From contig CASFCI010000003.1 in NCBI GenBank assembly GCA_949293175.1, forward strand, positions 78,899 to 142,898: a stretch of 64,000 bases of DNA, given 5' to 3'. Each line of letters starts with the position of its first letter. The first letter of the stretch is position 1. Source of the DNA: an uncultured bacterium (lineage in GTDB: Bacteria > Bacillota_I > Bacilli_A > RFN20 > CAG-826). Shown here one piece after another: positions 20,893 through 47,967 of the stretch. The position numbers and the translations under genes were made by a program. The notes beneath the pieces were generated by a model that had not been told where the DNA came from, made no database searches, and saw only the letters and a program-made list of their open reading frames with translations.

Positions 20893-23040
20893 CTAGGCCA
20901 TAGATGCGTTAGTGAGGCGCTTATTGTTGCACTTGACGCGCCGGTTGCGCCGTTTCATGTACACCCGGCCGCACTTCTCGATGTAGCGCCAATCGTGGAT
21001 CTCGATGGCGATACATAGCCTCCCCTCCAGCCGGAAATAGGCCATCGGGAGCGGGCCGAGCAGGCTTGGGAAAGCCGCGAGCCAAGCGAAGTAAAGCAAA
21101 TAGGAAAGCGCGAACAAGGCGGCATAGCCGGATAGGCTCAGCTTGAGGCAATAGGCGAGCGGGAAGCATATCGCGGCGGAAGCGGCAACCGGCGCCAGGC
21201 CCATGCAAAGCGCGAACGCGGATTCCTTCCCCTTGCCCCACCCAAGCACCGCTCCGGCGGCCCCAAAGATGGCCATGGCGGCGATCGCGAGTGCGAAAAC
21301 AGCCGGGTTGGGGGCGAAAACCAGCGCCACGTAGAAGCCCAAATAGGTCAGAAGGCCCGCAAGATAGGCATAGCCCCAATTCCTTCGGCCAATAGGCAGT
21401 GACGCCATCCCCAAGCAGATACCGCCGACGATGCCGTAAACCGAAAGGAATACCGCATTCGCCGATTGGCAGATCCCAAGCGGGCCGAGCAATATCGGAA
21501 GCAGCACGCCCAAGCCGATTGACAAACAGGTCGCGACGATGGCTAGCGGCCTAAACGAAAGCAATTCGCGGGCGCGGACCGCCTCATAGTCCTCCTGCCT
21601 GCGTAAAGGGCGCTTGAGGACGTAGCGGTTGTAATCGGATAGCAGCGGCACATAGGCCATCAAGACGATCATGAAGGCCTTGGTGTCGGTCATTAGGAAC
21701 GCGGTGCTCTCGGCCATGCCGTGTATCAGGAAGCCGATGAAGAAGACGAGGCACGGGAAGGCAGACTTCGAATGCCTTCGCCAGGCACGGAAGGCCACAT
21801 ATAGGAAATAGACCAGAATAAACAGGTAGGCAGCGAGCCGGATGACGCCCCCGCTGCAAAGTACATGGACGAAGCCGTTGTGGGCGTAGAAGATCCCGCC
21901 GGCGCTCGGCTTGTCGATATCGAACATCTTCCCCAATAGGTACCCGAAGTTGCTCTCCCCCACGCCGAATATCCATCTTATGGGGGAATCGGAGAGCATC
22001 ATGATGCTCGCATACCAGATGTCGAAGCGCGACTTCACCGACCCGGCATCGGTGCCCTCAAAGGCGAGCAACAGGTTATCGACCATCTTGGAGAAGACGA
22101 AGTTCTCGCCGAGCGTCTTGTAGAACCCTAGCAGGAACACCGCCAAAGGCGCGGCGAGGAAGAAGAAAAGCGTGATGAGGTTCCTCCGCCAATGCAGCCT
22201 GATGGTCAGCAGGAAGCGGTAAAGCAGGAAGGCGAATACCGCGAACATGGCAATCAGGATCGATGTCTTGGATATGACGAAGAAAAGCTCGCAGAACAAT
22301 ATCCCTATCAATAGGAAATTCCACCAATGGGGATGGTGGTTGTGGACGAATATCAAAGAGCAGATGCCGATGACCAGCATCATCCCGAACAGGTTGCGGT
22401 TATAGAAGAACGAGCTCGCGTACACCGAAGCCGTGACCTCGGTCTTGATCGAGAAGTACTTGACGTAGATTTGCCACTCCATGCCGATGCTCCAGGCGAC
22501 GGCGAAGAAGCTCACGAAGGCGGCGGCATAGAAGAGGAACATCAGCGACCTTCCGTCCTTCAGCAGCTGAGGCAATACGCAGAACAGGACATACAGGTAC
22601 CCCATGCCCACCACGAAAAGGATCATGAACCTGACCCGGTCCATGACATCAATGGAATAGGAGAACGCCGTCTTTGTCCCGTCTAGATGGTGGGTGAAGC
22701 CATCGATCGAGGAAGGGAACGCCAACAGCCCCACCGCGTTGGATATGATCAAAAGGCCGAACAGCCCGATGAATAGGTAATTTGCCTTCAGGCTTCCCTT
22801 CCTGATGGCCACGATCAGGAACAAGGCCATCGAGGCCAGGCAGGCGGCCATGGTCAGGAAGAACTCGACGTCGTCCATCAAGACGTAGTTCGGGGTGTTG
22901 AAGAAGGCAATAGCCTCCTCGAAATACGCCCCGACGCTTATGGACATCAGCCCCAGAAGCAGCAACAGCAGGTAAGGGGTGTTGCCTTTCCTCGCCCTGC
23001 CGACGCCGACTATGGACCAATCGATACGCCTTCGATGCAT
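20893..23040 (-). CDS. large polytopic membrane protein (O-antigen-ligase/Wzy-like?)
   Basis: 715 aa with more than 15 TM helices and a single large extracytoplasmic loop containing IFYAHNGFVHVL. The functional call is tentative. Confidence 0.35.
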   Translation of the reverse strand: MHRRRIDWSIVGVGRARKGNTPYLLLLLLGLMSISVGAYFEEAIAFFNTPNYVLMDDVEFFLTMAACLASMALFLIVAIRKGSLKANYLFIGLFGLLIISNAVGLLAFPSSIDGFTHHLDGTKTAFSYSIDVMDRVRFMILFVVGMGYLYVLFCVLPQLLKDGRSLMFLFYAAAFVSFFAVAWSIGMEWQIYVKYFSIKTEVTASVYASSFFYNRNLFGMMLVIGICSLIFVHNHHPHWWNFLLIGILFCELFFVISKTSILIAMFAVFAFLLYRFLLTIRLHWRRNLITLFFFLAAPLAVFLLGFYKTLGENFVFSKMVDNLLLAFEGTDAGSVKSRFDIWYASIMMLSDSPIRWIFGVGESNFGYLLGKMFDIDKPSAGGIFYAHNGFVHVLCSGGVIRLAAYLFILVYFLYVAFRAWRRHSKSAFPCLVFFIGFLIHGMAESTAFLMTDTKAFMIVLMAYVPLLSDYNRYVLKRPLRRQEDYEAVRARELLSFRPLAIVATCLSIGLGVLLPILLGPLGICQSANAVFLSVYGIVGGICLGMASLPIGRRNWGYAYLAGLLTYLGFYVALVFAPNPAVFALAIAAMAIFGAAGAVLGWGKGKESAFALCMGLAPVAASAAICFPLAYCLKLSLSGYAALFALSYLLYFAWLAAFPSLLGPLPMAYFRLEGRLCIAIEIHDWRYIEKCGRVYMKRRNRRVKCNNKRLTNASMA

Positions 23041-23231: not shown

Positions 23232-24107
23232 TTAGGCGCCAACGTCGGCATCGGCGTCAAGGGCGCCGAAGGCCAATTTGATGTTGATCATCTTGCCGCT
23301 GGCATCGTTCTGGTTTTGGACGATCGCGCCTTCCATCCAGATGGAAACGGTGACGTATAGGCGATTGACCCCGGTTGTTCCTTGGATGTCGCCGAGGTAG
23401 CAGGCCAACTCTTCGTTGTTCGTGTTGTCGGTTGGCATCGGATCAACGCCTGTAACAGTGGTGAAGAAATTATCTCCTTCGCCATAGGTTGCGGTGTCAT
23501 CGGTTGTGGTTCCGTCGACATAAGTCTTTAAGCTACCGGTTTCGGACCCTTCGGTGTTCTGCATGAAAACGAAATGGCCGGGCTTGGTGATGTCGTTGGC
23601 GCCGAAAGACGTCGGCTGCTCGCTGCCTTCCGTCTGGGCGTTGATGGCAACTTTTGTCCACCTTGCCAGCGGCTCGTTTTCGGTGCCGGTTATCGAGGAA
23701 TTGGCGGAGTCGAAGTAGCAGCTGATGGGATCGGTGCCTTGGTTGCTCAGGACGATGCCGAAGGTCAGATAGCCTTCAGTAGTGGTCTTATAGGCGATGG
23801 GCTCATCCCCAGTGCCCCAAACAGGCGCGTAGAAGGTCTGACCCTCGCGGGAAGAGACGTCGTATAGCGGGGTGTCGGAGGTTAGTGTGGCGGTGTTGGT
23901 GGTGCCGCCGGTGACCGGAGCGGAGGCCTCGAGATCGAAGTAGCCGATGTTCAAATTGCCGCGGGTGTTGGTGGCGGTGATGTTGGTGATGTTCATGGTC
24001 GCGGTGCGCGAGGCGGTGAACCACGCATAGGTGCCGGTCGCCCCAGCGGCAACGGTGCCGACGGTGAGGGCGGAGAGGGCTAGTAAGAGTTTGCTCTTGG
24101 TTTTCAT
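23232..24107 (-). CDS. secreted protein with SipW-cognate class signal peptide (TasA/camelysin-like fibre subunit)
   Basis: N-terminus MKTKSKLLLALSALTVGTVAAGATGTYAWFTASRTA matches the TasA-type signal (…GTYAYFTD…). T/G/N-rich beta-type body. 291 aa. Confidence 0.7.
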   Translation of the reverse strand: MKTKSKLLLALSALTVGTVAAGATGTYAWFTASRTATMNITNITATNTRGNLNIGYFDLEASAPVTGGTTNTATLTSDTPLYDVSSREGQTFYAPVWGTGDEPIAYKTTTEGYLTFGIVLSNQGTDPISCYFDSANSSITGTENEPLARWTKVAINAQTEGSEQPTSFGANDITKPGHFVFMQNTEGSETGSLKTYVDGTTTDDTATYGEGDNFFTTVTGVDPMPTDNTNNEELACYLGDIQGTTGVNRLYVTVSIWMEGAIVQNQNDASGKMINIKLAFGALDADADVGA

Positions 24108-24345: not shown

Positions 24346-24729
24346 ATGGACAAAAAGAAGAAAATCCTGCTGTGGGCGGCGGGCATAGCCGAGGCCGCGA
24401 TTATCATATTCGGCCTGGTGGTATCGATTCTGGTGATCGTCACCTACAACTCCCCCGAGGAATTCCCGGCCACCTACAAAGAGCTCAACCTTGCGGAAAA
24501 CGGCCCGATGATCGGGTATTTCCAGAACAACGCGACGGTTTTCTTCCTCGTGATAGTCCTTCCCCTGCTGCTCATACTGGCCGTCGATATCGTCTACCTC
24601 GTCTACTTCGCATTGAAGCGGGAATCCAAGCTAAGCGACTCCGAGCGGAAGATCATCGCCGAGAAGGCGAAAGAAGAGGCCAAGGCGGAACTGTTGAAGG
24701 AACTGGAAGAGGAGTCGACCAAGAAATAG
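24346..24729 (+). CDS. small two-TM membrane protein
   Basis: Met at 24346 (MDKKKKILLWAAGIAEAAIIIFGLVVSILVIV...) is preceded by gaaagaag. Two hydrophobic helices precede a charged C-terminal tail. The tracked ORF start at 24031 overlaps the convergent TasA-like gene and is unlikely. Confidence 0.4.
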   Translation: MDKKKKILLWAAGIAEAAIIIFGLVVSILVIVTYNSPEEFPATYKELNLAENGPMIGYFQNNATVFFLVIVLPLLLILAVDIVYLVYFALKRESKLSDSERKIIAEKAKEEAKAELLKELEEESTKK

Positions 24730-24784: not shown

Positions 24785-24816
24785 TTGACATGCACCGGCG
24801 ATAAGGCAAATAATAG
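24785..24816 (+). promoter_or_regulatory. candidate sigma70-type promoter (TTGACA ... TAATAG) for fibre operon 1
   Basis: TTGACA at 24785 and a TAATAG-like -10 near 24811; the spacing is long, so this is weak. It lies immediately upstream of the riboswitch-like leader. Confidence 0.25.
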
Positions 24817-24900: not shown

Positions 24901-25020
24901 GCAGGAGATCATCTCCGCGGGCAACTGAGCTGCATTTTCCTTGCTTCCACTAGGGCTAAGCCCCCAATCCCCGGGAATGGATTCCAATGGTAATACCGAG
25001 GAGAAGGAGCGCCCGCCTTG

Positions 25021-25977
25021 ATGATAGGCGGAAAAAAGGATTTTTCAGCCGTGCCCAAAAAGAAGAAAGAGAAAAAGGTCAAGCAGGACCTGCCTAAGAT
25101 CGACGCCATCGGCATGAAGGGCGTTTTGACGCCCGAGAAAGCCGCCAAGCGCAGGAAGAGGCGGAATATAGCCATCGCCGTCGGCTCCACCTCAGCCGCG
25201 GTTTTGGCCATGCTCATGATCATCGCCTTCCTCGGAAGGGTAAGCGGCAACTTCACCATCTCCATCGACCCCCGCGATTTCTCAAATCGCCTGGGCCTAT
25301 CCTACGAGGTCGATGGCTCCATGACCTCAACCATGCTTGGATCGGGCCTATCCGAGGCCAAGCCGGTCGCGGCCAGTCAGGTGTTCAACCACATCGACAG
25401 CTTCGATTCCTCCGCGCAGCTTTCGGGCGAGAACTCGCTTTACGAGGGGGAAGGTGACAGTCGGCGCAACTACGCGCTCGTGTACACCTGGTACCTACGG
25501 AATAAGACCGACGACGAGGTGACCTACCGGGTCACGCTCAACGTCAGCGACTACGTATCCCCCACCAACGAGGCGATCGAGCCTTACGAGTATCTGCGCG
25601 TGGCCGTCTTCGTCAACCCGGTGCTGACCTTCCCGGGCGCCGAGCAGACCCACGACTACACCGTCTATGGGCTGCAGTCGCGCACCGCCGGGACCGCCGA
25701 GGACGATGACGACGTCAGGGAATGCATCTCGCAGTTCTCCACTGACGACGAGGGAAGAAGGAACCCGATGAGCACCGACAACCAGAAATCCTCGGGCTAC
25801 TGCACCCCCTTCCTCGACACCAAGGGAAGGATATTCGACCTATCGGGGATGACCATCGCCCCGAGCGCGGCGGTCAGGTACACGTTGGTGGCCTGGCTAG
25901 AGGGATACGATCCGGAATGCCGCGGAAAGGCACCTGAAGGCGCCTCGATGACGTTCTCGTTGGAATACCAGTCATAG
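25021..25977 (+). CDS. membrane-anchored secreted protein (TapA-like accessory/anchor candidate)
   Basis: ATG at 25021 has a strong SD (GGAGAAGGAG). The protein has a K-rich N-terminal region, one TM helix and an extracytoplasmic domain. It is the first gene of an 8-gene coupled operon. Confidence 0.5.
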   Translation: MIGGKKDFSAVPKKKKEKKVKQDLPKIDAIGMKGVLTPEKAAKRRKRRNIAIAVGSTSAAVLAMLMIIAFLGRVSGNFTISIDPRDFSNRLGLSYEVDGSMTSTMLGSGLSEAKPVAASQVFNHIDSFDSSAQLSGENSLYEGEGDSRRNYALVYTWYLRNKTDDEVTYRVTLNVSDYVSPTNEAIEPYEYLRVAVFVNPVLTFPGAEQTHDYTVYGLQSRTAGTAEDDDDVRECISQFSTDDEGRRNPMSTDNQKSSGYCTPFLDTKGRIFDLSGMTIAPSAAVRYTLVAWLEGYDPECRGKAPEGASMTFSLEYQS

Positions 25978-25981
25978 TTTC

Positions 25982-26959
25982 ATGGAAAGAAAAGGCAATC
26001 GGCTCGGCGTATACCTGGCCGTCATAGCCGCCTGCATGGGGCTGTCTTTGGCCTCATCCGTGACGGCGACCTACGCCTTCTTTGAGGTAAGCAGCTCGCA
26101 GAAGGTGCAGGGATTGGATTTTTCTTTCGCCGGCGAGGACGAGATAAAGATCGGGCTGCCGAACTCATTGCTAGGCGACGTCGCCTACTACCAAGACGTC
26201 GATTCCTCGATCCTGCAGGCCCATTACCCCGACATCCCCTCGTCAATAAGCACCGTCACCACGGCATTCGGGGGAAACAAAGGGGAGCTTCCGACCTTCT
26301 ACGCCGACCCGCCGCAGTTCACTAAAACCTCCCGCGGATTCATCCAGTTCGACGTGTATCTGCTGTCGAGCGAATCCTGCTATGTCTACCTAGAGGACGG
26401 CTCGGGCATTGAGGAGGACGCGACCTACAACCGAAGCCAGGAAGAGGCTTTGGGATTAGAGTCCGGAAGCCTCAAGCGGATAGAGCAGGCCAGCCGGATC
26501 GCCATGTCGTTTGACGGCGGCACCACCATCTTCGCCAAAGAGGGCCGCAGCATATCCTACGCCGCCCCGCTCGACCTCGACTTCGACGGCTATGCCGATT
26601 CAAAAGACGGCAAAGACGTCCTATACGGGGATTACCAAGGCGAGCCAACCTACATCCAAGACGAAGGCCACGTCTACCCCAACGGAGAGAAAACCGCGCC
26701 GGGAAGCCTGTCGATCGACCTAGACGGCGAAGGAATCGCGAAAGAGAGCAACGAATCCTTCTCTTCCTACGTCCACGACGGGGCCGCTTCCTCGCAGGGG
26801 AGCGCCGCCAAGCCGCTATTGCAGCTAGAGGCCAATAAGGCCAAGAAAATCACCATCAGCTTCTACGTCGAGGGCTTCGACCCCCTCGCGGACAACAGCC
26901 TAAGCGGGGCCCGGGCGAAACTAAGCCTCGGCTTCATCCCATTATTCCAAAACGACTAA
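25982..26959 (+). CDS. secreted protein with SipW-cognate class signal peptide (TasA-like)
   Basis: N-terminus ...LSLASSVTATYAFFEVSSSQK. 325 aa. Only a 4-nt gap from the upstream gene. Confidence 0.65.
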   Translation: MERKGNRLGVYLAVIAACMGLSLASSVTATYAFFEVSSSQKVQGLDFSFAGEDEIKIGLPNSLLGDVAYYQDVDSSILQAHYPDIPSSISTVTTAFGGNKGELPTFYADPPQFTKTSRGFIQFDVYLLSSESCYVYLEDGSGIEEDATYNRSQEEALGLESGSLKRIEQASRIAMSFDGGTTIFAKEGRSISYAAPLDLDFDGYADSKDGKDVLYGDYQGEPTYIQDEGHVYPNGEKTAPGSLSIDLDGEGIAKESNESFSSYVHDGAASSQGSAAKPLLQLEANKAKKITISFYVEGFDPLADNSLSGARAKLSLGFIPLFQND

Positions 26960-26968
26960 GGAGGGCAT

Positions 26969-28522
26969 ATGAGCGCTTACTTCGAATACCTAAAGCAGAT
27001 GATAATCGAGTTCTTCACCAACCTCGGACTTTTCTTCTCCGACGCGTTCGCCTATCCGTGGTCGAAGGTGCCGGGGCAGGTTGACTACTACAATTCGCTT
27101 TTCGCCAACTACTCGCCCGACTTCGGGGGAGGAGGATGGTTCTTCTTCATCCTGTTCCTAATCTTGCTCATCGCCGCCTTCGGGGCTTTGGGCTATCTTG
27201 TATACTACCTTATACGCCGCTACGTGCATTTCCGCGCCTCCACCGAAGACACCACTAAGTACCGCGAGGAGATCGAGCGGCTCAACCTCGAGCTATACCA
27301 CGCGCTCTCCGAGAAGGACCGCGTGTTGGGGCTGCAGGTCCATAGCCTAGCCACCGCCGGGATCGACGTCGACGCCCCCAAGGCGGAAGAAGGCGGGGAG
27401 AAGAAGGAAGAGGAGGTTAGCGAGGACGACGTCAGGTTCCCGAAGCTATGCGACGTCGACGCCCGCTACGCCACCCCGATGCGCCCCACCGTCCTGCCCG
27501 AGGACGCCGCCAATATATCGCTAGAGGGCATCTGCGAGCGGTTCCGCCTATTCTGCGCCTCCCAGCTCGGCCTTTACTACACCATCGAGACCATGCGGGA
27601 GTTCATCGCCTCCATCGGCACCTCCAAGATCATCATCCTCGAGGGTATATCCGGCACCGGCAAGACCTCCTTGCCCTACGCTTTTGGGCGCTTCATAAGG
27701 CACAACGCCGCCATCTGCTCGGTCCAGCCTAGCTGGCACGACCGCTCGGAGCTGCTCGGCTACTACAACGACTTCACCCACCGCTTCACCGAGACCGAGT
27801 TCCTCCGCGCCATCTACGAGGCCACCTACCGCGACGACCTATCCGTCGTCGTCCTCGACGAGATGAACCTCGCCCGCATCGAGTACTACTTCGCCGAGTT
27901 CCTCTCCATCATGGAGATGCCTAACGTCAGCGAGTGGAACATCTCATTGGTCGCCGCGCCGAGAAAAGACGACCCGAAGCACCTCACCGACGGGAAGCTC
28001 TTGATCCCGCAGAACATAATCTTCGTCGGCACCGCCAACAACGACGACTCGACCTTCACCATCACCGACAAGGTCTACGACCGCTCGATGTCGCTTTTCT
28101 TCGACAACAAGGGCATCCCCTTCGACTCGACCTTCACCGAGGCCTGCCCGCTGCCATACGAATACGTCGCCTCGCTATTCGAGAAGGCCAAGGCCGACTT
28201 CCCGCTATCGGCCAAAAACCGCGAGAAGTTCGAGTCCCTCGACGAGTTCGTCATCGCCAAGTTCCGCCTGGCCTTCGGCAACCGAATATTGCGCCAGATG
28301 GAGTCCTTCGTCCCCTGCTACGTCGCCTGCGGCGGGACCGAGCTCGAGGCCATCGACTACATCTTCGAGTCGAAGATCCTCAAGAAGTTCGAGGTGCTCA
28401 ACATCTCCTTCCTCCGCGATGAGCTGATGGACCTCGAGGCCGAGCTCACCAAGCTCTTCGGCAAGAACGAGTTCAAGCTGTCCAAAGCCAAGATAAGGAG
28501 CTTCCTCAAGACCGTAAGCTGA
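26969..28522 (+). CDS. membrane-anchored McrB-family AAA+ (GTPase-type) ATPase
   Basis: N-terminal TM helix (FFFILFLILLIAAFGALGYLVYYLI) and a coiled-coil. Walker A is IIILEGISGTGKTS. Walker B/McrB signature is VVVLDEMNLARIEYYFAEFLSIME (compare DEINRANxxxxFGEL). The NxxD-type segment FVGTANNDDS matches the McrB MNTADRS region. Confidence 0.65.
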   Translation: MSAYFEYLKQMIIEFFTNLGLFFSDAFAYPWSKVPGQVDYYNSLFANYSPDFGGGGWFFFILFLILLIAAFGALGYLVYYLIRRYVHFRASTEDTTKYREEIERLNLELYHALSEKDRVLGLQVHSLATAGIDVDAPKAEEGGEKKEEEVSEDDVRFPKLCDVDARYATPMRPTVLPEDAANISLEGICERFRLFCASQLGLYYTIETMREFIASIGTSKIIILEGISGTGKTSLPYAFGRFIRHNAAICSVQPSWHDRSELLGYYNDFTHRFTETEFLRAIYEATYRDDLSVVVLDEMNLARIEYYFAEFLSIMEMPNVSEWNISLVAAPRKDDPKHLTDGKLLIPQNIIFVGTANNDDSTFTITDKVYDRSMSLFFDNKGIPFDSTFTEACPLPYEYVASLFEKAKADFPLSAKNREKFESLDEFVIAKFRLAFGNRILRQMESFVPCYVACGGTELEAIDYIFESKILKKFEVLNISFLRDELMDLEAELTKLFGKNEFKLSKAKIRSFLKTVS

Positions 28523-28523
28523 T

Positions 28524-30650
28524 ATGCCAAAGGCCCGCACCACCCTTAGCCTTGCCGAGCGGGCATACCTAAGGAAGATAAAAACCCTGCTCACCCAAAG
28601 CGCCTCATTCTATGAGCTGCTGCTTTCGCTGCGCCAGGAGAGGAACACCTACCTCGCCCAGAAGTCGCGCCTCGAGGCCAAGTCCATCGACCCCTCCTTC
28701 ATCGACGAGCTCGAGAAGGGGTTCGACGCCATCGACGCGATCATCAAGAACCCCCGCACCTTCATCAAGGAGGACGACGTGCTGGTCGAGGCCGGAAGGG
28801 CCAAGCGGATCTCGCCCCGCTCGATAAGCCATCTGGCATCCCACACCCAATACGTCCATAACGTCGACGATGACGGCAACGTCACCCCGGAGAAGCTGAT
28901 GGTCCCGGAGTCCGACATCGACTACTGGATCTACGAGAACCGGTTCATCATGACCCTGATCAAGAAGTGCTCGGTCTTCATCCAGAAGAGACTTCTCTTC
29001 ATCAAGGACCATGGCGAGACCCGCGATTCCGAGGTGCTGCTGCTGCACACCGACCACAATGTCGGCGAGGTCAAGTACGAGGTCGACACCAGGATCAAGC
29101 TTTCCTGCGCCTCCACCGACTCGGGCAAAGCCAAGGTCAACGAGGACCTCTTGATCCGCCTCGCCAAGCTGCGCGAGCGGGTCGCCTACTTCGCCTCCTC
29201 GCCCTTCATGTCGGCCATGAAGGGGGCCAAGGAGGTCGCCAACCCGATCCACCCCACCAACCTGCTGGTCAAGAACCCGGAGTACAAGAAGGCCCTCGCC
29301 CTATGGAAGTTCATCGACTCCTACAAGGAACTCGGCATCGAGGTCTCCGTCAAGGAGGACAGCAAGAAGTTCAAAGACGACTACGTCGAGACGCTTTGCT
29401 CGCTTTTAGCCGCCTCGATCGTCACCCTCGAGGGGAACCTCGTCAAAGACGACGAGGTCAAGGCCAAGTCGACGAAGAAGAAGATAATCCCGAAGGTGCT
29501 CTTCTCGCTTGAGGACGAGACCTTCTACGACGGCCGCTTCCTCTACGACCAGTTCCCGCTCCGCGAGCGGAAGAAGATCAGCCCGCTCTACCCGACCGTC
29601 GAGGAATCGAAGGCCTACCGGGAGGAGTTGGAGCGCAAACGGGCCGAGGACAAGGCCAAGAAAGCCATCGTCGAAGCCGAGATCGAGCGCGCCAAGGAAC
29701 GCGAGATCGAGCTGCAGGCAAGGGCCAACCGCAAGATGCTAGAGGAACAGAGGAAGCAGGACGAGCGCGAGCTCATCCGCGCCGCCATCGAGGCCGAGAA
29801 GGCCAAGCTTTCCGAGCAGCTAGAGGCCAAGCGGAAGGCCGATCGGGCCGCCGAGGAGGAGCTGCGCAAGCTGCGCAAGGCGAGGATCATGATCGTCGAG
29901 GCCGGCAAGAAAGACCGCGCCGGAGAAAAGCCCGCCCCGAAGAGCAGCGACGGCTTCCCCGACGAGACCCCAATCGTCGTCGAGCAGACCCCGATCATCG
30001 CCTCCACCCCCGAGGAGCAGGGCATAAAGACCACCGTCGGCAAGCCCAAGCGGGTCCGCCGCACGGCCAAGAAAGTCACCAAGAAGGCCAAGCCGGCCAA
30101 GAGGGTAGAGGAAGAGAAGCCGCTGGAAGCGGAGACTGTTTCGGAATCGCCCGTCGAAGAGGAGCCAATCAAAGAGGAGGCCCCAAAGCAAGAGGACGTC
30201 GCCGCGATAATCTCCAGCGCCCCGGAAGAGGAACTGGCCAAACAGCAGTCCGCGCCCGCGGTGGAAGAGTCCGCCCCAATAGCCGAGGAGGCTCCCAAGG
30301 AAGAGACAAAGCCGGCGGAGGAGACCGAGCAAAAGCAGGATTCTTCAGAAGGTAAGGCCGAGGATAAAACCCCAGGCGAGCCCGAGGAAGAAGCCAAGGC
30401 CGAGCCGGAAAAGCCCGCAGATTCCAAGGATTCGGAGCAGGAAAAGCCCCAGGATTCAGCCTCGGAGAATAAGCCCGAGGATAAGAGGAAGAAGAAAGGC
30501 AAGGCCGCCCGCAAAGCCAAGAAAGAGGAGAAGAAGGCCGAGGAAGCCGCTAAGCCCAGCAAGCCGACCTACACCACCCTCAAGACCCGCTCCAAGCGCG
30601 GCGGCAGGAGCTTCGTCGTCGACTACGCTAGGAAAGGCAAAAGAAGATGA
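28524..30650 (+). CDS. partner protein of the McrB-like ATPase; structured N-half, coiled-coil, long E/K/P/A-rich disordered tail
   Basis: The start codon lies 1 nt after the upstream stop. Residues about 1-340 are ordered. Then a coiled-coil segment (EELERKRAEDKAKKAIVEAEIERAKE...). About 250 aa of acidic, proline-rich low complexity follow, ending in a K/R-rich patch. A McrC-like nuclease motif could not be confirmed. Confidence 0.5.
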   Translation: MPKARTTLSLAERAYLRKIKTLLTQSASFYELLLSLRQERNTYLAQKSRLEAKSIDPSFIDELEKGFDAIDAIIKNPRTFIKEDDVLVEAGRAKRISPRSISHLASHTQYVHNVDDDGNVTPEKLMVPESDIDYWIYENRFIMTLIKKCSVFIQKRLLFIKDHGETRDSEVLLLHTDHNVGEVKYEVDTRIKLSCASTDSGKAKVNEDLLIRLAKLRERVAYFASSPFMSAMKGAKEVANPIHPTNLLVKNPEYKKALALWKFIDSYKELGIEVSVKEDSKKFKDDYVETLCSLLAASIVTLEGNLVKDDEVKAKSTKKKIIPKVLFSLEDETFYDGRFLYDQFPLRERKKISPLYPTVEESKAYREELERKRAEDKAKKAIVEAEIERAKEREIELQARANRKMLEEQRKQDERELIRAAIEAEKAKLSEQLEAKRKADRAAEEELRKLRKARIMIVEAGKKDRAGEKPAPKSSDGFPDETPIVVEQTPIIASTPEEQGIKTTVGKPKRVRRTAKKVTKKAKPAKRVEEEKPLEAETVSESPVEEEPIKEEAPKQEDVAAIISSAPEEELAKQQSAPAVEESAPIAEEAPKEETKPAEETEQKQDSSEGKAEDKTPGEPEEEAKAEPEKPADSKDSEQEKPQDSASENKPEDKRKKKGKAARKAKKEEKKAEEAAKPSKPTYTTLKTRSKRGGRSFVVDYARKGKRR

Positions 30651-31432
30651 GGAAGTGGATCAGCTACACCATCAACGGCCTGCTCATCGCCCTGGTGGCG
30701 TTCTTTGCCTATTGCCAGATCTCGATGGTCGCCTCGATGGGTAGCAACTACGGCGTGCCCTCGGTATTCGGCTATTCCTTCCTCTACGTCGCGACCGACT
30801 CGATGGAGGGCGACCTGCCCGATTCGCTGCCGGTCGGCTCGGGCATCGTCATCAAGGACGAGGGGCCGGAGAACGTGCAGGTCGGGGACATCATCACCTT
30901 CTATTACCCCGAGCTCGGCGCGACCGACACCCACCGCGTCCACGAGATAGAGCGCAACCAGGACGGGACCCTCACCTTCTATACTAGGGGCGACAACCTC
31001 AACGCCCAGCTTTCCGGGGGATCCTGGAGCGAGGACTACCGCGAGGTGGTGCCGGAGTCCAATTACGTCGGCACGGTCGTATACAGCTCGCTGCCTTTCG
31101 GGAGCTTCCTAACCTACGTCAGCCCCCAGGTCCCCTCGGAGAAGAGCCATTCCAGCTGGGTGTTCCCGCTGCTGATCGTCACCCCGCTTTCCATCGCCGC
31201 CGTCTACTCCATAGCCGACATGGCCATCAAGCTGCGGAAAGAATCCAAGGCCGAGAAGGAGGAGCTCGAGCAGGCCAAGAAGCAATCCGGCATCGACTTA
31301 AACGACGAAGCCGCCGTTTTGGCCTTCGAGGAAAAGTGGCATTATAAGAAGGAGCTTCGCGAGGACATGCAGAAGCAGAAGGAAAAAGAGCTCCGAAAAT
31401 TAAGGAAAGAGCTTAGGAGGGAGAGAAGATGA
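30647..31432 (+). CDS. sipW: signal peptidase I, SipW/archaeal type (S26B)
   Basis: YVATDSMEG (SGSMEP-like catalytic Ser box), GDIITFYYP...THRVHEI and FYTRGDNLNAQ align with B. subtilis SipW motifs. C-terminal TM helix. ATGA overlap with the upstream gene. Confidence 0.75.
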   Translation: MRKWISYTINGLLIALVAFFAYCQISMVASMGSNYGVPSVFGYSFLYVATDSMEGDLPDSLPVGSGIVIKDEGPENVQVGDIITFYYPELGATDTHRVHEIERNQDGTLTFYTRGDNLNAQLSGGSWSEDYREVVPESNYVGTVVYSSLPFGSFLTYVSPQVPSEKSHSSWVFPLLIVTPLSIAAVYSIADMAIKLRKESKAEKEELEQAKKQSGIDLNDEAAVLAFEEKWHYKKELREDMQKQKEKELRKLRKELRRERR

Positions 31433-33021
31433 ACCAATCCCAGAAGCTTAGCCTAGGCCTATTCGCCGGGCTCGCCTGCCTCGACGCCGCCTGCTTCGCG
31501 GCCTTGATAAGCCTGTTGTCGCTCTCGCTTTCCTCCGGCCGCCCGGTCGCCGGGGACTCGCTTTGGGCGGTGCTCTGCCTATCGCTCTCATTCGCCATAT
31601 TGACCATCGGGTCTTTGTTCCCCCTATCGAGATTCATGACATCGTCGCTGAAGAGCAAGCGCATCAAGGAGATATTCGGCGAGGACCTTCCGATCTTCAC
31701 CCCAAAGCAGCTCGCCAGGATGGCAAGGAGGGCCAAGGCCGACGGCAGGAAGAACAAGCTGATCTGCCTCATGGTCTCGGTCAAGGGGCCGTCGAACTCA
31801 TCGGTTTCCTCGATGCAGAAGGAAAACGCCATCAAGGCCATGCGGCATTCCTACGATTTCCTCCGCGATAAATTGCCCTACGCCACGATCGGCTATTCGA
31901 TAATCGGCGGGTTCACCCTGCTCGAACTTGTCGAGGATGAGGCCGAGCGCCTCGACGAATACCGGGCCATCGTGCTCGAGCTTTCCTCCTCGCTGCAGAA
32001 CACCGGGGCCTTGCCCTACGCCTATCTTTTGGCCGGTGAATCCCGAAGGCTGGTAGAGAAGGGCAGGCGCATCGACGGCAAAGCGCTGCTGCAGGAGGCC
32101 GAATACGCCCTCCGGCATTCCGCCAACAACCGCCTTTCCTGCGACCTGCAGCCGTATAGCCCCTCCCTTCAGGAAGACGACGCGGCCCTGCACTGGCTCG
32201 ACACCGACCTCTCCTCCGCCATCGAGCGCGGCGAATTGATCGTTTTCTACCAGGCCAAGCGCTCGCTTAGAAGCGGCGGCTACTACGGGGCCGAGGCGCT
32301 GATCCGCTGGAAGCACCCCCGGAGGGGCCTATTGCCGCCATCGGTCTTCGTGCCCTATTGCGAATACTCCGGACGCATCGTCGAGATCGACCACTTCGTT
32401 TTCCTCTCCGCCTGCAAGGCAAAGCAGGAATGGGCCAAAGCCGGGAGGAAGCCGCTCACCATATCGGTCAACCTATCCCGCCGGACGGTATATGACCCCG
32501 GGCTGCTCGACTTCCTTTCCAGCACCGTCGAGAAGTACGGCGTCGACCCATCGGAGATGGAGCTTGAGCTAACCGAATCCCTCGCGGCCGAGAACCTGGT
32601 CTTCATCTCCTCGGTCATCAAGCGCATCAAGGAGCTCGGATTCAAGACCTCGATCGACGACTTCGGGATCGGCTATTCCTCGCTAAGTGCCCTCAAATCG
32701 ATACCTTTCGACGTCCTCAAGATAGACAAATCGTTCATCGACGACCTCGAGATCGAGAAGAAGTCCCGCGACATGGTCGGGTCGATCATCTCGCTGGTCC
32801 ATGCTTTAGGAATGAAGGTCGTGGCCGAGGGGGCCGAAAGCCTGAAGCAGGTCGAGATACTCTCCTCGCTCGGGGCCGATGGCATCCAGGGATACTACTT
32901 CTCCCGCCCGCTACGCAAAGACGCCTTCGAGGCGCTGGTCGAGGAAGACGAGGCCAGGCGCAGGAAGAAGGAGAAAGACGACCGCGATCGGCGCAAGGCC
33001 GAGAAGGAGGCAAGGCAATGA
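31429..33021 (+). CDS. membrane-anchored c-di-GMP phosphodiesterase (degenerate GGDEF + catalytic EAL)
   Basis: N-terminal TM region. The GGDEF position carries IGGFTLLE. EAL motifs are intact: EALIRW, ELELTES, DDFGIGYSSL, KIDKSFI, VAEGAES, QGYYFSRP. Confidence 0.8.
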   Translation: MNQSQKLSLGLFAGLACLDAACFAALISLLSLSLSSGRPVAGDSLWAVLCLSLSFAILTIGSLFPLSRFMTSSLKSKRIKEIFGEDLPIFTPKQLARMARRAKADGRKNKLICLMVSVKGPSNSSVSSMQKENAIKAMRHSYDFLRDKLPYATIGYSIIGGFTLLELVEDEAERLDEYRAIVLELSSSLQNTGALPYAYLLAGESRRLVEKGRRIDGKALLQEAEYALRHSANNRLSCDLQPYSPSLQEDDAALHWLDTDLSSAIERGELIVFYQAKRSLRSGGYYGAEALIRWKHPRRGLLPPSVFVPYCEYSGRIVEIDHFVFLSACKAKQEWAKAGRKPLTISVNLSRRTVYDPGLLDFLSSTVEKYGVDPSEMELELTESLAAENLVFISSVIKRIKELGFKTSIDDFGIGYSSLSALKSIPFDVLKIDKSFIDDLEIEKKSRDMVGSIISLVHALGMKVVAEGAESLKQVEILSSLGADGIQGYYFSRPLRKDAFEALVEEDEARRRKKEKDDRDRRKAEKEARQ

Positions 33022-33740
33022 TACTCATCGTCGGCGAAGACCAGGACGCCTTGCTCTACCTGCGCAACCGGCTAAACCTCGCCCGGGAGGAGAACATCAA
33101 CGACTACCTCCACGCCGCGGTTGGGACGCTCGGCGAGGAGAAGGTCGCCGTCTCCTGCGTTGGCATCGGGCTCAGCTTAGTCGGCATAAACACCGCCACC
33201 CTGCTTTCAGTATACGATCCGTATCTGGTCATCAACATCGGCTGCGTCGCCTCCATCAAGGGGACGCTCCACCAAGGCGACATCTTCATCCCCGAGCGCT
33301 ACTACGTCGAGGGCATAGACTATTCCGGCGACGGCAAGACCATATCCGGGCAGCTCCCGGGCCTGCCGCCTTTCTTCCTAACCGAGCCTAGCCTCGCCGA
33401 GAAGGCCGAATCAATCGGGTATGAGCTGGGCGGCAAATTCATTGAGCGCGCCTCCTTGCTAAGCGGGGACATGCGCCTGCTCGATGAACCAGAGTACCAG
33501 CAGAAGCTCAAGATGAGGTACGCCGGCTACTCGAGGCTCACCTGCTACGACAACTCCTCGTACGGCGTTGCCTTGGCCTGTTATCTCCGCAAAACCTCGC
33601 TTCTTTCGATAAAAGCCGTCAATTACGAGGCCAATGCCGTCTCCGAGCGGCTCAATTTCCGCCGCAAGGGACTCGAGGCGATGCCCTTCATCGGGCGCCT
33701 AGTGGCCGGGCTGCTGCTTAGCCTGTCGAAGGGCCGTTGA
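33018..33740 (+). CDS. purine nucleoside phosphorylase/MTA-SAH nucleosidase family (PNP_UDP_1) protein
   Basis: MILIVGEDQDA..., VAVSCVGIGLSLVGINTATLL..., YLVINIGCVAS and QGDIFIPE parallel MtnN motifs (MKIGIIGAMEEE / SGIGKVAAA / VINTGSAG / VGDIVVSD). It is the last gene of operon 1. Confidence 0.55.
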   Translation: MILIVGEDQDALLYLRNRLNLAREENINDYLHAAVGTLGEEKVAVSCVGIGLSLVGINTATLLSVYDPYLVINIGCVASIKGTLHQGDIFIPERYYVEGIDYSGDGKTISGQLPGLPPFFLTEPSLAEKAESIGYELGGKFIERASLLSGDMRLLDEPEYQQKLKMRYAGYSRLTCYDNSSYGVALACYLRKTSLLSIKAVNYEANAVSERLNFRRKGLEAMPFIGRLVAGLLLSLSKGR

Positions 33741-33765
33741 CGGATTTTATATGTAATATAAAAAC

Positions 33766-33797: not shown

Positions 33798-33875
33798 TCG
33801 ACAAAGGCAAACCTAGAGCGATCTAGGGGCGCAAAACTACAGGGCCTCTCCGAGGCAGCCAGGTGCCACTAATCC
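33798..33875 (+). ncRNA. candidate c-di-GMP-I (GEMM-like) riboswitch aptamer, copy 2
   Basis: aaaGGCAAACC followed by hairpin TAGA-GCGA-TCTA (GNRA loop). Then GGGGCGCAAAACTACAGGGCC, hairpin GGCCTC-tcc-GAGGC, and AGCCAGG. 18 of 19 identical to copy 1 over GGCGCAAAACTA(A/C)AGGGCC. It overlaps the tracked GTG start at 33863, which argues for the ATG at 33887. Confidence 0.5.
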
Positions 33876-33886
33876 AAAGCAAGACT

Positions 33887-36625
33887 ATGGCCACCTGTTC
33901 CTTCAAAACGAAATTAGCCCTATCGCTCACCGCGGCTTTTTCGTTTTTCGCCTTGGTCTTCTCCGTCGGCGGCATAACCTTGGCGGCCTACCTAAACGCC
34001 ATCGAGGCCGAGTATTCCAACAAGATCGGTTTCCGCGATCTGGGACAGTACTTCAACGGTGTCTCTACCGATTCCAATACTGGCAAGACAACCTACCAGA
34101 TAAGCAATGCGGATGAGTTCCGAAACCTCCAGATGCTGGTTTCGCTTGGGCTATTTGATGAAGATGACATATTCAATTTGACCTCCGATATCACCTGGAG
34201 TGGAACCGCCATGGCCCCGATCGGATCCGACGACATGCCGTTCAACTCGACCTTCAATGGCTGCGGGCATACCATATCCAACCTTCAAATCGCTTGTTCG
34301 GACGGGCGCGATGCCGGCCTTTTCGGGTATACCTCAATCAACAGCGAAGTGAAGAACCTCATCTTGGCAAGTCCCACCATCACCATCAATGCAAATTCAA
34401 ACGGTGGCAACGAGGTTTCGGGGTCACCGATTGAAGCGGTTTTGTCTACGGCGGCCAAAGGCATGCCAGAGATCGTGTTCTCAAATCCGGGTCAAGAAGT
34501 CACCGGAAGCATAAACGTCATCAACGATTCCGATAAGTCTCAATCCACCATCAAGGGATTCCCGCCAACCGTGCAAGACATCAACGGGAATTCTTACGAG
34601 GTCATATATGAATCGTCTGACGAAAACCTCATCAAAGCCCAGGGCGATGGATCTTTCCTGACTTTCAAAACTGAGACCGCGGCACCGAATTACGATCTTT
34701 TCGCCTGCACAATTACTTCCAAGGTTAAATACTTAATTGACGATAGGTTCGGATATTACGTTCTTGAACGTTATCAGTTCAACGTGTTGGGGAACGGCTT
34801 AGTCACAACTACCACAGATCAAGACGGCAACCACATGGGGGCGTTTAAGACAATCCACCCAAGCAACAACGAGCACAAAACATACGCCGGTTTTTTCATT
34901 GGGCACTGTGATGGAAAAGCCAATCATCTTGGTCTTGTTGGTGACGATGAGCAAGGCAATTTCAAAGCTAAATTAGTTATTAACGAAGGCTCCAGAAAGT
35001 ATATTTATTCATCAAGAGTCTTGATAGGGATGACAAGAAGCGACAACCCAATTGATGCCTCCGCCGGCGAATCAATGAGTATTACCTATGACTTTGATTC
35101 GCCAATCACCGAAGCGAATGTCACGAATGGCCCTACTGGAGAAATGTGGGTAAAAGACATAGAATCCGGATACGCAAATGCAAGTTATGCCTATGGGTCA
35201 AATTATTTAACTAACGAAGACCCGTATGATACCGGAAACGATAAAGATGTTAACCACCAGTGGGAAAACGCTGAGCTTCTAACCAAACCATACATTCCAA
35301 ACACAACCATTAGGGAATATTCGAAAATCTTTCCAGGCAGTAAACCATCCGCCGCGGAAGGGCCAAGCGGAACCAAACAAGCGACCAATTATTTTGCTAA
35401 CGTCAAACTCCCAGAATCCGATGAAACGACCAATAAAAGTTCATTCTTCGGCCTAGTTTTGGATGGTGGTTTAGGCGCCGGGACGATGACGCAAGTCGTT
35501 CATAAAGGAGGGTTGTTAAACTCCTATAGACGATGGGTAAGGGGCATATATGCAAATAACGGAATATGGCTTTGGTCAACAAAGAACCTCAGTCCTCTAT
35601 TCGGGGAAAACCTATTCTATATAAACATCAGGATTTCGTACGTTGCAACAAGAACTGGGGGCAATGAAGGACAAAACAGTTTTCAGATACTCGCAAATGC
35701 CTACAATCCCGAAGTAATATCAGGCGAAAATGAAGAACTGACTGGATCTTATGCGCAAAACTTATTTTGGCAGGACCTCCACTCTCCATACAATTACCAT
35801 CTCCAAAAGCAGGATTCTATGTACGATCCAACAAATTATCCAATCATAGACGATGGGAAGCTTCACTCGGCTGTTATTACATTGAAAATAGATCAAGACA
35901 ACAACAACTTTTTGGGTTCGATTTTCCAATCGTGGTTTGGAAACGAAAACTCCGAGATTCGATATCCAATGCTTGCAATAGGCATGGGTTCAAACCAAAA
36001 TCCGGACAGCATAAACGATTCTACGATGCGATACTATGCTGACATATATGAAGAAGAAAATTTAGTTGGCGATTCTCATTTTTTAACTTACGAAAGCAAT
36101 AAATTCGGATCTAATGGAAATGAAGACATAGGGAATTATTTATATGCCGCTTCCCTAATAGATGTTGGACTGGCCACTTATGGATATCAAACTTTCCAAA
36201 GAAACGGGGACGATACATTCCTTGGCTTGCCGAATTTGTCTCAAAGGTACCGAGATCACGAACGAGGCTATTTTAATTCTTATTTTACTGTAGAAAACGG
36301 CACCAAACTTTATATCAAGGATTTCCAAATGACCTTTACAAACAGGCAAGGAAACACCGAAGACATCATTTATGATGTCGATTATATTAATTCGCGAGAT
36401 CTCCCGATTTTTGAAGCTAATGCCTATTCTTACTGGCCAAGTTCGAGCAACGTATTGGTTGCATTCGACATAGACGGAAGTCAGGGGAACGAAGCTGTTT
36501 CTTTCTCTTTCTACCGGAATGCAAATGGCACGATATTTGGCAACTCCAGTAACACGAATGCTGGCTATGGTTTGACCAATTCTGGCGGAACGGGCTACAC
36601 CGACGCCACCTTGACGCAGGGGTAA
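33887..36625 (+). CDS. large secreted adhesin-like protein (SipW-cognate-like signal; GLUG/parallel beta-helix-like N-domain), AT-rich body
   Basis: N-terminus MATCSFKTKLALSLTAAFSFFALVFSVGGITLAAYLNAIEAEY. The GLUG-type motif is PFNSTFNGCGHTISNLQIACSDGRDAGLFGY. About 910 aa with an N/T/G/Y-rich beta body. GC drops sharply about 200 nt into the gene. The alternative tracked start at 33863 (GTG) overlaps the leader. Confidence 0.6.
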   Translation: MATCSFKTKLALSLTAAFSFFALVFSVGGITLAAYLNAIEAEYSNKIGFRDLGQYFNGVSTDSNTGKTTYQISNADEFRNLQMLVSLGLFDEDDIFNLTSDITWSGTAMAPIGSDDMPFNSTFNGCGHTISNLQIACSDGRDAGLFGYTSINSEVKNLILASPTITINANSNGGNEVSGSPIEAVLSTAAKGMPEIVFSNPGQEVTGSINVINDSDKSQSTIKGFPPTVQDINGNSYEVIYESSDENLIKAQGDGSFLTFKTETAAPNYDLFACTITSKVKYLIDDRFGYYVLERYQFNVLGNGLVTTTTDQDGNHMGAFKTIHPSNNEHKTYAGFFIGHCDGKANHLGLVGDDEQGNFKAKLVINEGSRKYIYSSRVLIGMTRSDNPIDASAGESMSITYDFDSPITEANVTNGPTGEMWVKDIESGYANASYAYGSNYLTNEDPYDTGNDKDVNHQWENAELLTKPYIPNTTIREYSKIFPGSKPSAAEGPSGTKQATNYFANVKLPESDETTNKSSFFGLVLDGGLGAGTMTQVVHKGGLLNSYRRWVRGIYANNGIWLWSTKNLSPLFGENLFYINIRISYVATRTGGNEGQNSFQILANAYNPEVISGENEELTGSYAQNLFWQDLHSPYNYHLQKQDSMYDPTNYPIIDDGKLHSAVITLKIDQDNNNFLGSIFQSWFGNENSEIRYPMLAIGMGSNQNPDSINDSTMRYYADIYEEENLVGDSHFLTYESNKFGSNGNEDIGNYLYAASLIDVGLATYGYQTFQRNGDDTFLGLPNLSQRYRDHERGYFNSYFTVENGTKLYIKDFQMTFTNRQGNTEDIIYDVDYINSRDLPIFEANAYSYWPSSSNVLVAFDIDGSQGNEAVSFSFYRNANGTIFGNSSNTNAGYGLTNSGGTGYTDATLTQG

Positions 36626-36631
36626 ACATCG

Positions 36632-37597
36632 ATGGGAAGCAAGAAGACATTGATATTGACCGCTGCGGTCAGCCTGCTGGCCACCTTGTCCATCTCGGTG
36701 GCCACCTACGCCTGGTTTTTGACCAGCTTCGGGGCCAATGGCGGCAAGACAATCAACCTGACCTCAGGCGTCAGCTCGGTCATGGTCACCGCCAAGGCCT
36801 ACTCGATGAACGCCGATGAGAACGGCGGTTTCAGCGCGAAGAACAGCATCTCCATCGACAAAGCCGGAAACGTCACCGCCGAGGAGCAGGCTACCGGCCC
36901 CACCATCAGCTCGAGTTCCCTATCCGTCTCGTTCAATCAGGTCCGGGATGCCTACGACTATCTGCCTCTATACGCAAACGAGGTGAGCCTAAACCGCGAG
37001 AAGCTGCCTCGGGCCTACGTCGAATTGGAGTACCGCCAGGACAATGTCGGAGGCTACGTGAAAGTCGACGTCGAGCCAGTTGTCAAGAATACCTCTATAG
37101 AATGGTCAAAATCCGGGGATGCGTCGACATTTGGCGCGTATCTTCGCAGCTTCACCTACCGCAACGACGAATCCGCCCCAACCAGCGAATCGATCAGACA
37201 AATGCTCGAGGATAGGACAGAAAACGGCGCAAATCCCGACTCCAGCGTCTGGACCTCGCTTTCCTCTACTGCCGACGTCTATTCGGGACAGCTGCACGTC
37301 AATCCGCTCAACCTATCGCAGAACGGCGAACTCTACTATTCCTGCGCGACCTTGCTCGAGATAACGATCGACCCGTTGCCGTTCCTTGATATGCTTATGG
37401 ACACCATGCAGTCCTTAGACCAAGCAACATCTGATACGGAGTCCACCGGCCAGGGAACATCTAGCGTCAAATTCGAGCTTTCGCTCAACTTCAAGCTCAA
37501 CATCAGCTACTCCTCCAGCCCGTTCCGGGAAGGGAATAACGAGCTGCCGGTGGCCGAGCTCAACCCAGGAAGCTTTCTAGAAGGGGGCAACGCATGA
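36632..37597 (+). CDS. secreted protein with SipW-cognate class signal peptide (TasA-like paralog)
   Basis: N-terminus MGSKKTLILTAAVSLLATLSISVATYAWFLTSFGANGG. 321 aa. Only a 6-nt gap from the upstream gene. Confidence 0.65.
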   Translation: MGSKKTLILTAAVSLLATLSISVATYAWFLTSFGANGGKTINLTSGVSSVMVTAKAYSMNADENGGFSAKNSISIDKAGNVTAEEQATGPTISSSSLSVSFNQVRDAYDYLPLYANEVSLNREKLPRAYVELEYRQDNVGGYVKVDVEPVVKNTSIEWSKSGDASTFGAYLRSFTYRNDESAPTSESIRQMLEDRTENGANPDSSVWTSLSSTADVYSGQLHVNPLNLSQNGELYYSCATLLEITIDPLPFLDMLMDTMQSLDQATSDTESTGQGTSSVKFELSLNFKLNISYSSSPFREGNNELPVAELNPGSFLEGGNA

Positions 37598-47964: not shown

Positions 47965-47967
47965 AGG

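Follow-up and report, generated by a model that had tools for sequence, protein, structure and literature searches.

The DNA stretch analysed here, hereafter the window, comprises 64,000 nucleotides of a contig from an uncultured bacterium of the Bacilli (GCA_949293175.1, contig CASFCI010000003.1, positions 78,899 to 142,898), and all nucleotide positions below are counted from its first letter. Two adjacent forward-strand genes in it are the subject of this report. The first (26969-28522, + strand) encodes protein A, a 517-amino acid (aa) membrane-anchored homologue of the McrB-family AAA+ GTPases, recognised from its open reading frame (ORF), profile matches and motifs. The second (28524-30650, + strand) encodes protein B, a 708-aa homologue of McrC without a nuclease, recognised from its ORF and a DUF2357 domain. 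McrBC is the textbook GTP-dependent restriction motor, and in the window its homologues stand beside a SipW-type signal peptidase, TasA-like secreted proteins and enzymes of cyclic di-GMP (c-di-GMP) metabolism. An earlier note, made from the letters of the window alone, had placed the pair at these positions, which the ORFs confirm, and supposed that it was co-opted for a role other than restriction, and both the missing nuclease and the conserved synteny with SipW and fibre genes agree with it. For the comparison with other genomes, ORFs were called in the 80 best loci of A and matched to the window proteins; individual related loci are cited below by L numbers.

Protein A begins with a conserved segment of 55 residues (1-55), followed by a single strong hydrophobic helix at residues ~56-82 (27134-27214; Kyte-Doolittle 19-residue maximum of 2.75), the predicted transmembrane (TM) helix. 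Residues ~95-125 form a leucine-rich, E/L-rich heptad-like helical stretch, a zipper that was read by eye, is conserved in the family and is a candidate coiled coil. Among 118 homologues of A, the mean net charge is -1.9 before the TM helix and +2.7 over the 20 residues after it. Given this asymmetry and the positive-inside rule, the AAA+ domain is predicted to be cytoplasmic and the conserved N-terminal segment to lie outside the cell. Pfam/hmmscan profile searches of residues 1-200 revealed no DNA-binding family, so the observation that a TM helix and a helical segment stand where classical McrB carries its N-terminal DNA-binding domain, already made in the earlier note, is upheld.

The AAA+ core occupies residues 205-377 (27581-28099). 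It is matched by Pfam AAA_5 (E=5e-4, 20.6 bits, just under the gathering score of 22) and by the NCBIfam McrB model (E=1e-3), and a profile built from 12 sequences of the A family matches the solved McrB chains 6hz4, 6ut6 and 7vsr (E=2e-4 to 5e-4), all of which supports the AAA_5/McrB core that had been read by inspection. In the McrB profile alignment, GISGTGKTS corresponds to the Walker A motif (G226-S234; 27644-27670) and LDEMNLAR..YFAEFLSIME, which includes Walker B (L296-R303), stands opposite DEINRAN..FGEVMMLME. GTANNDDS falls on GLMNTADRS without gaps, which bears out the GTPase signature proposed before; its NNDD motif (residues 357-360; 28037-28048) may stand for NxxD or for NxD with a further D behind it, and the alignment to E. 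coli McrB allows both. Walker A, Walker B (LDExNxA) and NNDD are invariant in all 120 homologues of A that were compared. As judged from its sequence, A is an intact McrB-type AAA+ nucleoside triphosphatase (NTPase) in which the DNA-binding N-terminal domain is replaced by an outward segment, a TM helix and a zipper.

In B, the conserved N-terminal module extends from residue 1 to ~310 (28524-29453) and contains DUF2357 at residues 63-192 (28710-29099). The Pfam match lies above the gathering score (28.3-31.6 bits against 23.3) and was found in 23 of 29 diverse homologues, which answers in the affirmative the comparison of this half with McrC/DUF2357 that had been suggested. DUF2357 is the N-terminal domain of McrC (Bell et al. 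2024, PMC11090510, Figure 3 legend). The family of the conserved 340-aa N-module is large, with 342 clusters at 50% identity for E<=1e-30 and 1018 for E<=1e-10, and the members among the best 150 matches vary from 207 to 2240 aa. There is no TM segment in B (maximum Kyte-Doolittle value of 1.27), and Pfam families were found neither in residues 193-370 nor in the tail.

Searches of the 29 homologues and of 8 long-tailed members of the family revealed neither PD-(D/E)xK nor any other nuclease family. The invariant residues of the B family are E51, I73, P77, P122, Y137-E138-N139-R140, L145, R156, P241, T245-N246 and W261, a set with no D...(D/E)xK pattern, and the structural model is mostly helical at residues 197-310, with a single strand. 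No McrC-type nuclease had been noticed in the partner by eye, and these results point the same way. The model gives weak support for a McrC fold, with a high root-mean-square deviation and helical bundles scoring alike; its Foldseek comparison with the PDB returned nothing significant, and the B sequence profile matched only low-complexity coiled coils among PDB sequences and no McrC. Since the structural support is weak, the McrC descent of B rests on sequence evidence together with gene adjacency. On that evidence, B retains the N-terminal module of McrC and, instead of the nuclease, carries a helical region followed by a charged helix and by a charged tail that is hypervariable.

The charged helix of B (residues 355-454; 29586-29885) is a helix-type segment balanced in K/R/E/D and a candidate coiled coil; the model covers just residues 359-369 of it and is helical there. 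It is followed by an acidic/proline-rich tract at residues 455-650 (29886-30473; net charge -18, 50 D/E, 22 P), within which residues 501-530 form a basic island, and by a basic tip of 58 residues (651-708; 30474-30647; net charge +17) containing the KKKGKAARKAKKEEKK patch. An acidic/proline-rich tail with a basic end had been described in the earlier note and does exist, with the correction that the acidic part measures ~200 aa rather than ~250 and holds a basic island. The charges of the supposed polyanionic spacer and basic tip agree with that description, and the two features recur only in close relatives such as L001. Beyond residue ~350, the orthologues are always rich in E/K/A/P or similar, unalignable across lineages and different at the C-terminus from subclade to subclade, and the 68 complete orthologues from related loci range from 389 to 2331 aa. 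Only trivial two-copy tandem repeats are found in the DNA encoding the tail, which rules out a repeat array. Real as it is, the acidic tail is hypervariable and lineage-specific, and does not define the family. The tails of one subclade (L041, L043, L046, L047, L050 and L052) end in a conserved motif of ~45 aa, ..GYY(V/I)....FS......(I/V)F.DFDEA......GKV(I/V).L, whose conservation suggests a small folded C-terminal domain missing from the B of the window.

Directly after B lies the gene for a SipW-type (archaeal-type) signal peptidase I of 261 aa with two TM helices (30647-31432, + strand), matched by TIGR02228 with 61.4 bits against a cut-off of 51.85. It carries a charged cytoplasmic tail of ~70 aa, and most of its orthologues in L001-L080 have such a tail after the second TM helix, usually of 40-150 aa, with a motif ..(E/D)(K/R)ERLKKELLEEM.. 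that recurs in many lineages. The coiled coils of A and B may dock on this tail.

Candidate substrates of the peptidase flank the pair. T1 (23232-24107, - strand) has a SipW-type signal peptide (..GATGTYAWF..) and is the candidate major fibre subunit: its model is a jelly-roll like those of TasA and archaeal pilins, with TasA (8aur), 7ueg and 7pnb as the best structural matches. T3 (25982-26959, + strand), directly upstream of A, is likewise secreted, with the SipW-type signal peptide ..SVTATYAFF.., and is a full-length homologue of T1 (hhalign probability of 98% over 259 columns). Between them, T2 (25018-25977, + strand) combines a basic disordered cytoplasmic N-terminal segment, one TM helix and an extracellular domain, and is a candidate membrane anchor or base subunit. 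A C-terminal W-x-EG strand is common to the three proteins. The TasA relationship of T1 was found by structure comparison only, as its profile matched no TasA among PDB sequences, and neither Pfam nor NCBIfam, including Peptidase_M73 (camelysin/TasA), matched any of T1 to T5 (T4 and T5 are described below).

Upstream of T2, a gene (24346-24729, + strand) encodes a small 2-TM protein, conserved and 127 aa long, which bears a charged helix at its C-terminus; the gene is found in the same place in 34 related loci. It is followed by a promoter-like site upstream of T2, TTGACA-18-AATAAT (24785-24814, + strand), identified by consensus match only (11 of 12 positions). T2 and T3 precede A directly on the same strand, and A itself has a strong ribosome-binding site (AAGGAGG). 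A single base separates the stop codon of A from the start of B (TGAtATG), and ATGA overlaps occur at the B/SipW, SipW/EAL and EAL/PNP junctions, where EAL is a membrane-anchored c-di-GMP phosphodiesterase (31429-33021, + strand; Pfam EAL E=2e-64, also supported by synteny) and PNP a protein of the PNP_UDP_1 (nucleoside phosphorylase/nucleosidase) superfamily, the last gene of the unit (33018-33740, + strand). From A through the phosphorylase-like gene, each frame abuts or overlaps the next, an arrangement consistent with co-translation. A terminator-like hairpin at 33723-33743 closes the unit, which it brackets together with the promoter-like site. The operon is likely to be T2-T3-A-B-SipW-EAL-phosphorylase-like, starting at the promoter-like site. 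Further downstream, the gene of a 999-aa protein with two N-terminal TM helices (38562-41561, + strand) is kept in most related loci; its C-terminal EAL match is weak (E=3e-9), with 'EAF' replacing 'EAL', and it is possibly no enzyme but a degenerate c-di-GMP receptor.

These neighbours raise the question of whether the pair is purely a regulatory switch, in which the GTP-bound and GTP-free states of a complex of six A and B would gate SipW or c-di-GMP signalling, for instance via the coiled-coil tails, and would set the timing of fibre production while playing no part in polymerisation. We find this plausible, though on balance unlikely. The EAL, GGDEF-EAL and weak-EAL membrane protein genes are conserved neighbours, and the long cytoplasmic tail of SipW would suit such a role. 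The SipW of Bacillus subtilis reportedly has a second, peptidase-independent regulatory role, which work by Terra et al. in 2012 is said to have assigned to its C-terminus. On the other hand, a hexameric AAA+ motor with an activating partner would be an expensive design for a switch, and no c-di-GMP-binding motif was identified in A or B, for which no aimed search was made.

The conservation of the locus is extensive. A has thousands of homologues at 45-99% identity, and at least 571 matches were found in species-representative genomes. Among the matches listed, the carriers are almost exclusively gut or rumen metagenome-assembled genomes (MAGs) of uncultured 'Bacilli bacterium' or 'Erysipelotrichaceae', Candidatus Enteromonas and Enterosoma, and MAGs that bear the labels Acholeplasma, Paracholeplasma and Anaeroplasmataceae. 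Wherever the contig runs on beyond A, in 77 loci, A is followed by B. The SipW-type peptidase gene adjoins the pair in almost all loci with enough flanking sequence, and in the most distant ones (45-49% identity to A) it lies directly upstream of A-B, downstream, or on both sides. Genes with xTxAW[FY] signal peptides number 1 to 7 per locus in 66 of the 80 loci, and in many of the other 14 A is near a contig end. In about 50 loci the gene order is that of the window: small 2-TM protein, T2, T3 (or other signal-peptide genes), A, B, SipW, EAL, PNP_UDP_1-like and a ~1000-aa EAL-related membrane protein. Even loci where B is only 33% identical retain A, B and the signal peptidase; of these, L081 and L082 add GGDEF-EAL genes, and L083 and L084 add EAL, GGDEF-EAL and PNP_UDP_1 genes. 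The PNP_UDP_1 gene is kept directly after the EAL phosphodiesterase even in distant loci (e.g. L083, 12705-13439).

Homologues of the pair are thus not limited to defence islands, since SipW-type peptidase and SipW-substrate genes adjoin them in essentially every locus with enough flank. In the window, housekeeping genes (gal genes, a MiaB-like enzyme and a glucanotransferase) form the outer flanks, and the defence-type genes sit apart, in low-GC islands. A defence-island reading of A-B was considered and rejected on the conserved synteny, the housekeeping flanks and the lack of an effector. A subtler form of immunity would be a membrane-tethered sensor, similar to McrBC or CoCoNuT, that guards the pilus as a likely phage receptor and acts via an unrecognised effector. 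PDC-M26A, the closest profile of the defence library PADLOC, matches A with E=2e-39 (nothing on PDC-M26 was found in the literature), the clade branches with CoCoNuT in the NxD group (PMC11090510, section 7), and an arms race could account for the hypervariability of the B tail. Nevertheless, neither B nor 37 homologues yielded a nuclease or any other effector domain. The conservation of A at 45-80% identity, in fixed synteny and in hundreds of species genomes, is the pattern of a vertically inherited core gene and not of a sporadic defence system, and neither the housekeeping flanks nor the placement of evident defence-type genes in low-GC islands elsewhere in the window favours immunity. We therefore give little credence to it.

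Three low-GC segments of the window lie away from the operon. At 47098-49317 (- strand; GC ~46%), the gene of an AAA_21/AbiEii-type ATPase (449 aa) precedes that of an RloB-like protein (288 aa); the two, which have no relation to A-B, are a candidate defence pair. A gene of 36-43% GC (51324-54293, - strand), encoding a 989-aa protein with a calcineurin-like phosphoesterase domain, looks horizontally acquired. At the window edge (60807-63550, - strand; GC 33-35%), a 352-aa protein with a Cap4-type double-stranded DNA endonuclease domain overlaps a 568-aa protein with no family match, possibly a CBASS-like or other defence remnant.

Two other gene sets may concern the fibre itself. Between the operon and the 999-aa protein gene lies a module of 42-48% GC, against ~60% in most of the window (33863-38559, + strand), which contains a 920-aa secreted protein, T4 (36632-37597, + strand) and T5 (37594-38559, + strand), the last two with SipW-type signal peptides. 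Its position or orientation differs among L001, L012 and L023, and the module resembles an accessory set that is mobile or evolves fast, possibly encoding a tip adhesin. On the other side, a 715-aa multi-TM protein with a Wzy_C (O-antigen ligase-like) domain (20893-23040, - strand) adjoins the S/T-rich T1; among related loci it was detected in L001 alone. Pilin O-oligosaccharyltransferases (PilO/PglL) belong to the Wzy_C family, and this protein may glycosylate the fibre.

A class with the features of A-B has already been named. Bell et al. 2024 (eLife, PMC11090510, section 7) describe a large 'NxD' clade of McrB-like GTPases, CoCoPALM, which shares the NxD branch with the CoCoNuT systems; its GTPases carry a fused FtsB-like domain made up of a TM and a coiled-coil part, signal-peptidase-family genes are associated, and both the McrB and the McrC homologue bear coiled coils. 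The description takes one paragraph, with the analysis deferred to a future paper; the text supplements of that article do not mention CoCoPALM, and we found no follow-up in the literature. As in A, a TM and coiled-coil segment replaces the DNA-binding domain at the N-terminus; the NNDD motif fits an NxD clade with a second aspartate; and a McrC homologue with DUF2357 and a coiled coil, next to a signal-peptidase gene, is present in the window as well. The A-B pair therefore fits a CoCoPALM module, a class named and so far uncharacterised, and nothing in it contradicts the membership. To that description our analysis adds a neighbouring substrate modelled with a TasA-like fold, the conservation of the c-di-GMP and PNP_UDP_1 genes, the SipW cytoplasmic tail, the hypervariability of the McrC-like tail, and the hosts, which are uncultured Bacilli and MAGs labelled Acholeplasma or Anaeroplasma.

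The FtsB-like element described for these GTPases leads to a different proposal, that the TM helix and coiled coil of A serve the envelope or cell division apart from fibres, the link to SipW being historical. FtsB homology of the N-terminal domain is reported by Bell et al. (PMC11090510), and one source annotates a homologue of A (P0047) as FtsL. However, similarity to FtsB/FtsL is not significant by hmmscan, and synteny with SipW and its substrates, held down to 33-45% identity and with overlapping frames, is hard to explain in the absence of a functional link, so that such a role seems to us highly improbable.

Comparison with better-known systems helps to place the pair. With canonical McrBC of E. 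coli and Thermococcus (6hz4, 6ut5, 6ut6) it shares Walker A, DExNxA and the N..D motif, DUF2357, and adjacent co-oriented genes; it differs in that A is membrane-anchored and has no DNA-binding N-terminal domain, B has no PD-(D/E)xK nuclease, and both are vertically conserved in a fibre operon rather than a defence island. CoCoNuT (CnuB/CnuC) shares the NxD branch, the coiled-coil fusions and McrC homologues often devoid of an active nuclease. CoCoNuTs are always paired with HEPN or other nucleases (PMC11090510), whereas no such nuclease accompanies A-B, whose context is one of secretion and fibre genes. The tapA-sipW-tasA operon of B. subtilis and the archaeal filaments (Pyrobaculum bundling pili, Sulfolobus threads) share with the window a dedicated SipW-type peptidase, ..T-x-A-W/F-type signal peptides and, according to the T1 model, a jelly-roll subunit. 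Those systems have no associated NTPase, while here a GTPase pair and c-di-GMP enzymes lie within the operon, and the T subunits, unlike TasA, give no Peptidase_M73 or TasA match by sequence.

We propose that A-B is an McrBC-derived GTPase pair that has lost the restriction function and become the fixed cytoplasmic part of a SipW-dependent, TasA-like fibre locus. The identity of the pair and its non-restriction context are very probably correct; the proposal as a whole, mechanism included, we regard as reasonably probable, and the assembly platform described next, taken on its own, as a tentative model. A GTP-driven platform or switch in fibre biogenesis is proposed because A-B has neither nuclease nor DNA-binding domain and shares its operon with a peptidase, the substrates of that peptidase and c-di-GMP enzymes. 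In canonical systems, the N-terminal module of McrC inserts into the McrB hexamer and stimulates GTP hydrolysis. With the catalytic motifs preserved in A and the module that binds McrB still present in B, a McrB-like hexamer of A activated by one B is the simplest model, and by analogy B is predicted to stimulate the GTP hydrolysis of A. The ring would lie under the membrane, tethered by six TM helices, with one B passing through its pore and turning on hydrolysis. Joined by the coiled-coil tails that SipW and the small 2-TM protein extend into the cytoplasm, and possibly by T2, the pair would form a platform that couples GTP turnover, under c-di-GMP control, to the processing, polymerisation or membrane anchoring of TasA-like subunits on the extracellular side. 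In this model the tail of B would serve as a spacer or tether that varies and would take no part in catalysis.

Several points weigh against this platform reading. The chief difficulty is that the known fibres of the TasA type do without an NTPase and form outside the cell: for characterised TasA, archaeal bundling pili and threads, assembly proceeds by donor-strand exchange, with no NTPase described in the papers we found. A and B are cytoplasmic and polymerisation is extracellular, and the step that would couple them is purely our inference. We found no experiment in the literature linking any McrBC-like protein to TasA, SipW or fibre assembly. The best PADLOC match of A is a defence-candidate McrB-like profile, of which only the shared GTPase core matches. 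In addition, the Pfam match of the A N-terminus to FtsB/DivIC/FtsL was not significant (hmmscan found it in 1 of 12 members, with E=0.13). In its most specific form, in which a cytoplasmic McrBC-derived GTPase motor under c-di-GMP control helps to build, anchor or retract donor-strand-exchange fibres of the TasA type in these Bacilli and Mollicutes-related gut bacteria, the proposal is speculative and somewhat doubtful.

The retention of a nuclease-less McrBC pair beside SipW, TasA-like subunits and c-di-GMP enzymes, on the scale of at least 571 species-representative matches and 342 clusters at 50% identity for B, implies a non-defence job for the motor and an unrecognised cytoplasmic step in fibre biogenesis. 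For CoCoPALM we found a name and no published analysis or experiment, and a locus with a defined operon, motifs and candidate partners makes the question testable. TasA-like fibres are thought to polymerise extracellularly with no energy source. If the motor reading is true, this would be the first NTP-dependent assembly machinery for filaments of the TasA/archaeal-thread type, and a case in which the motor of a restriction enzyme was exapted for cell-surface biogenesis.

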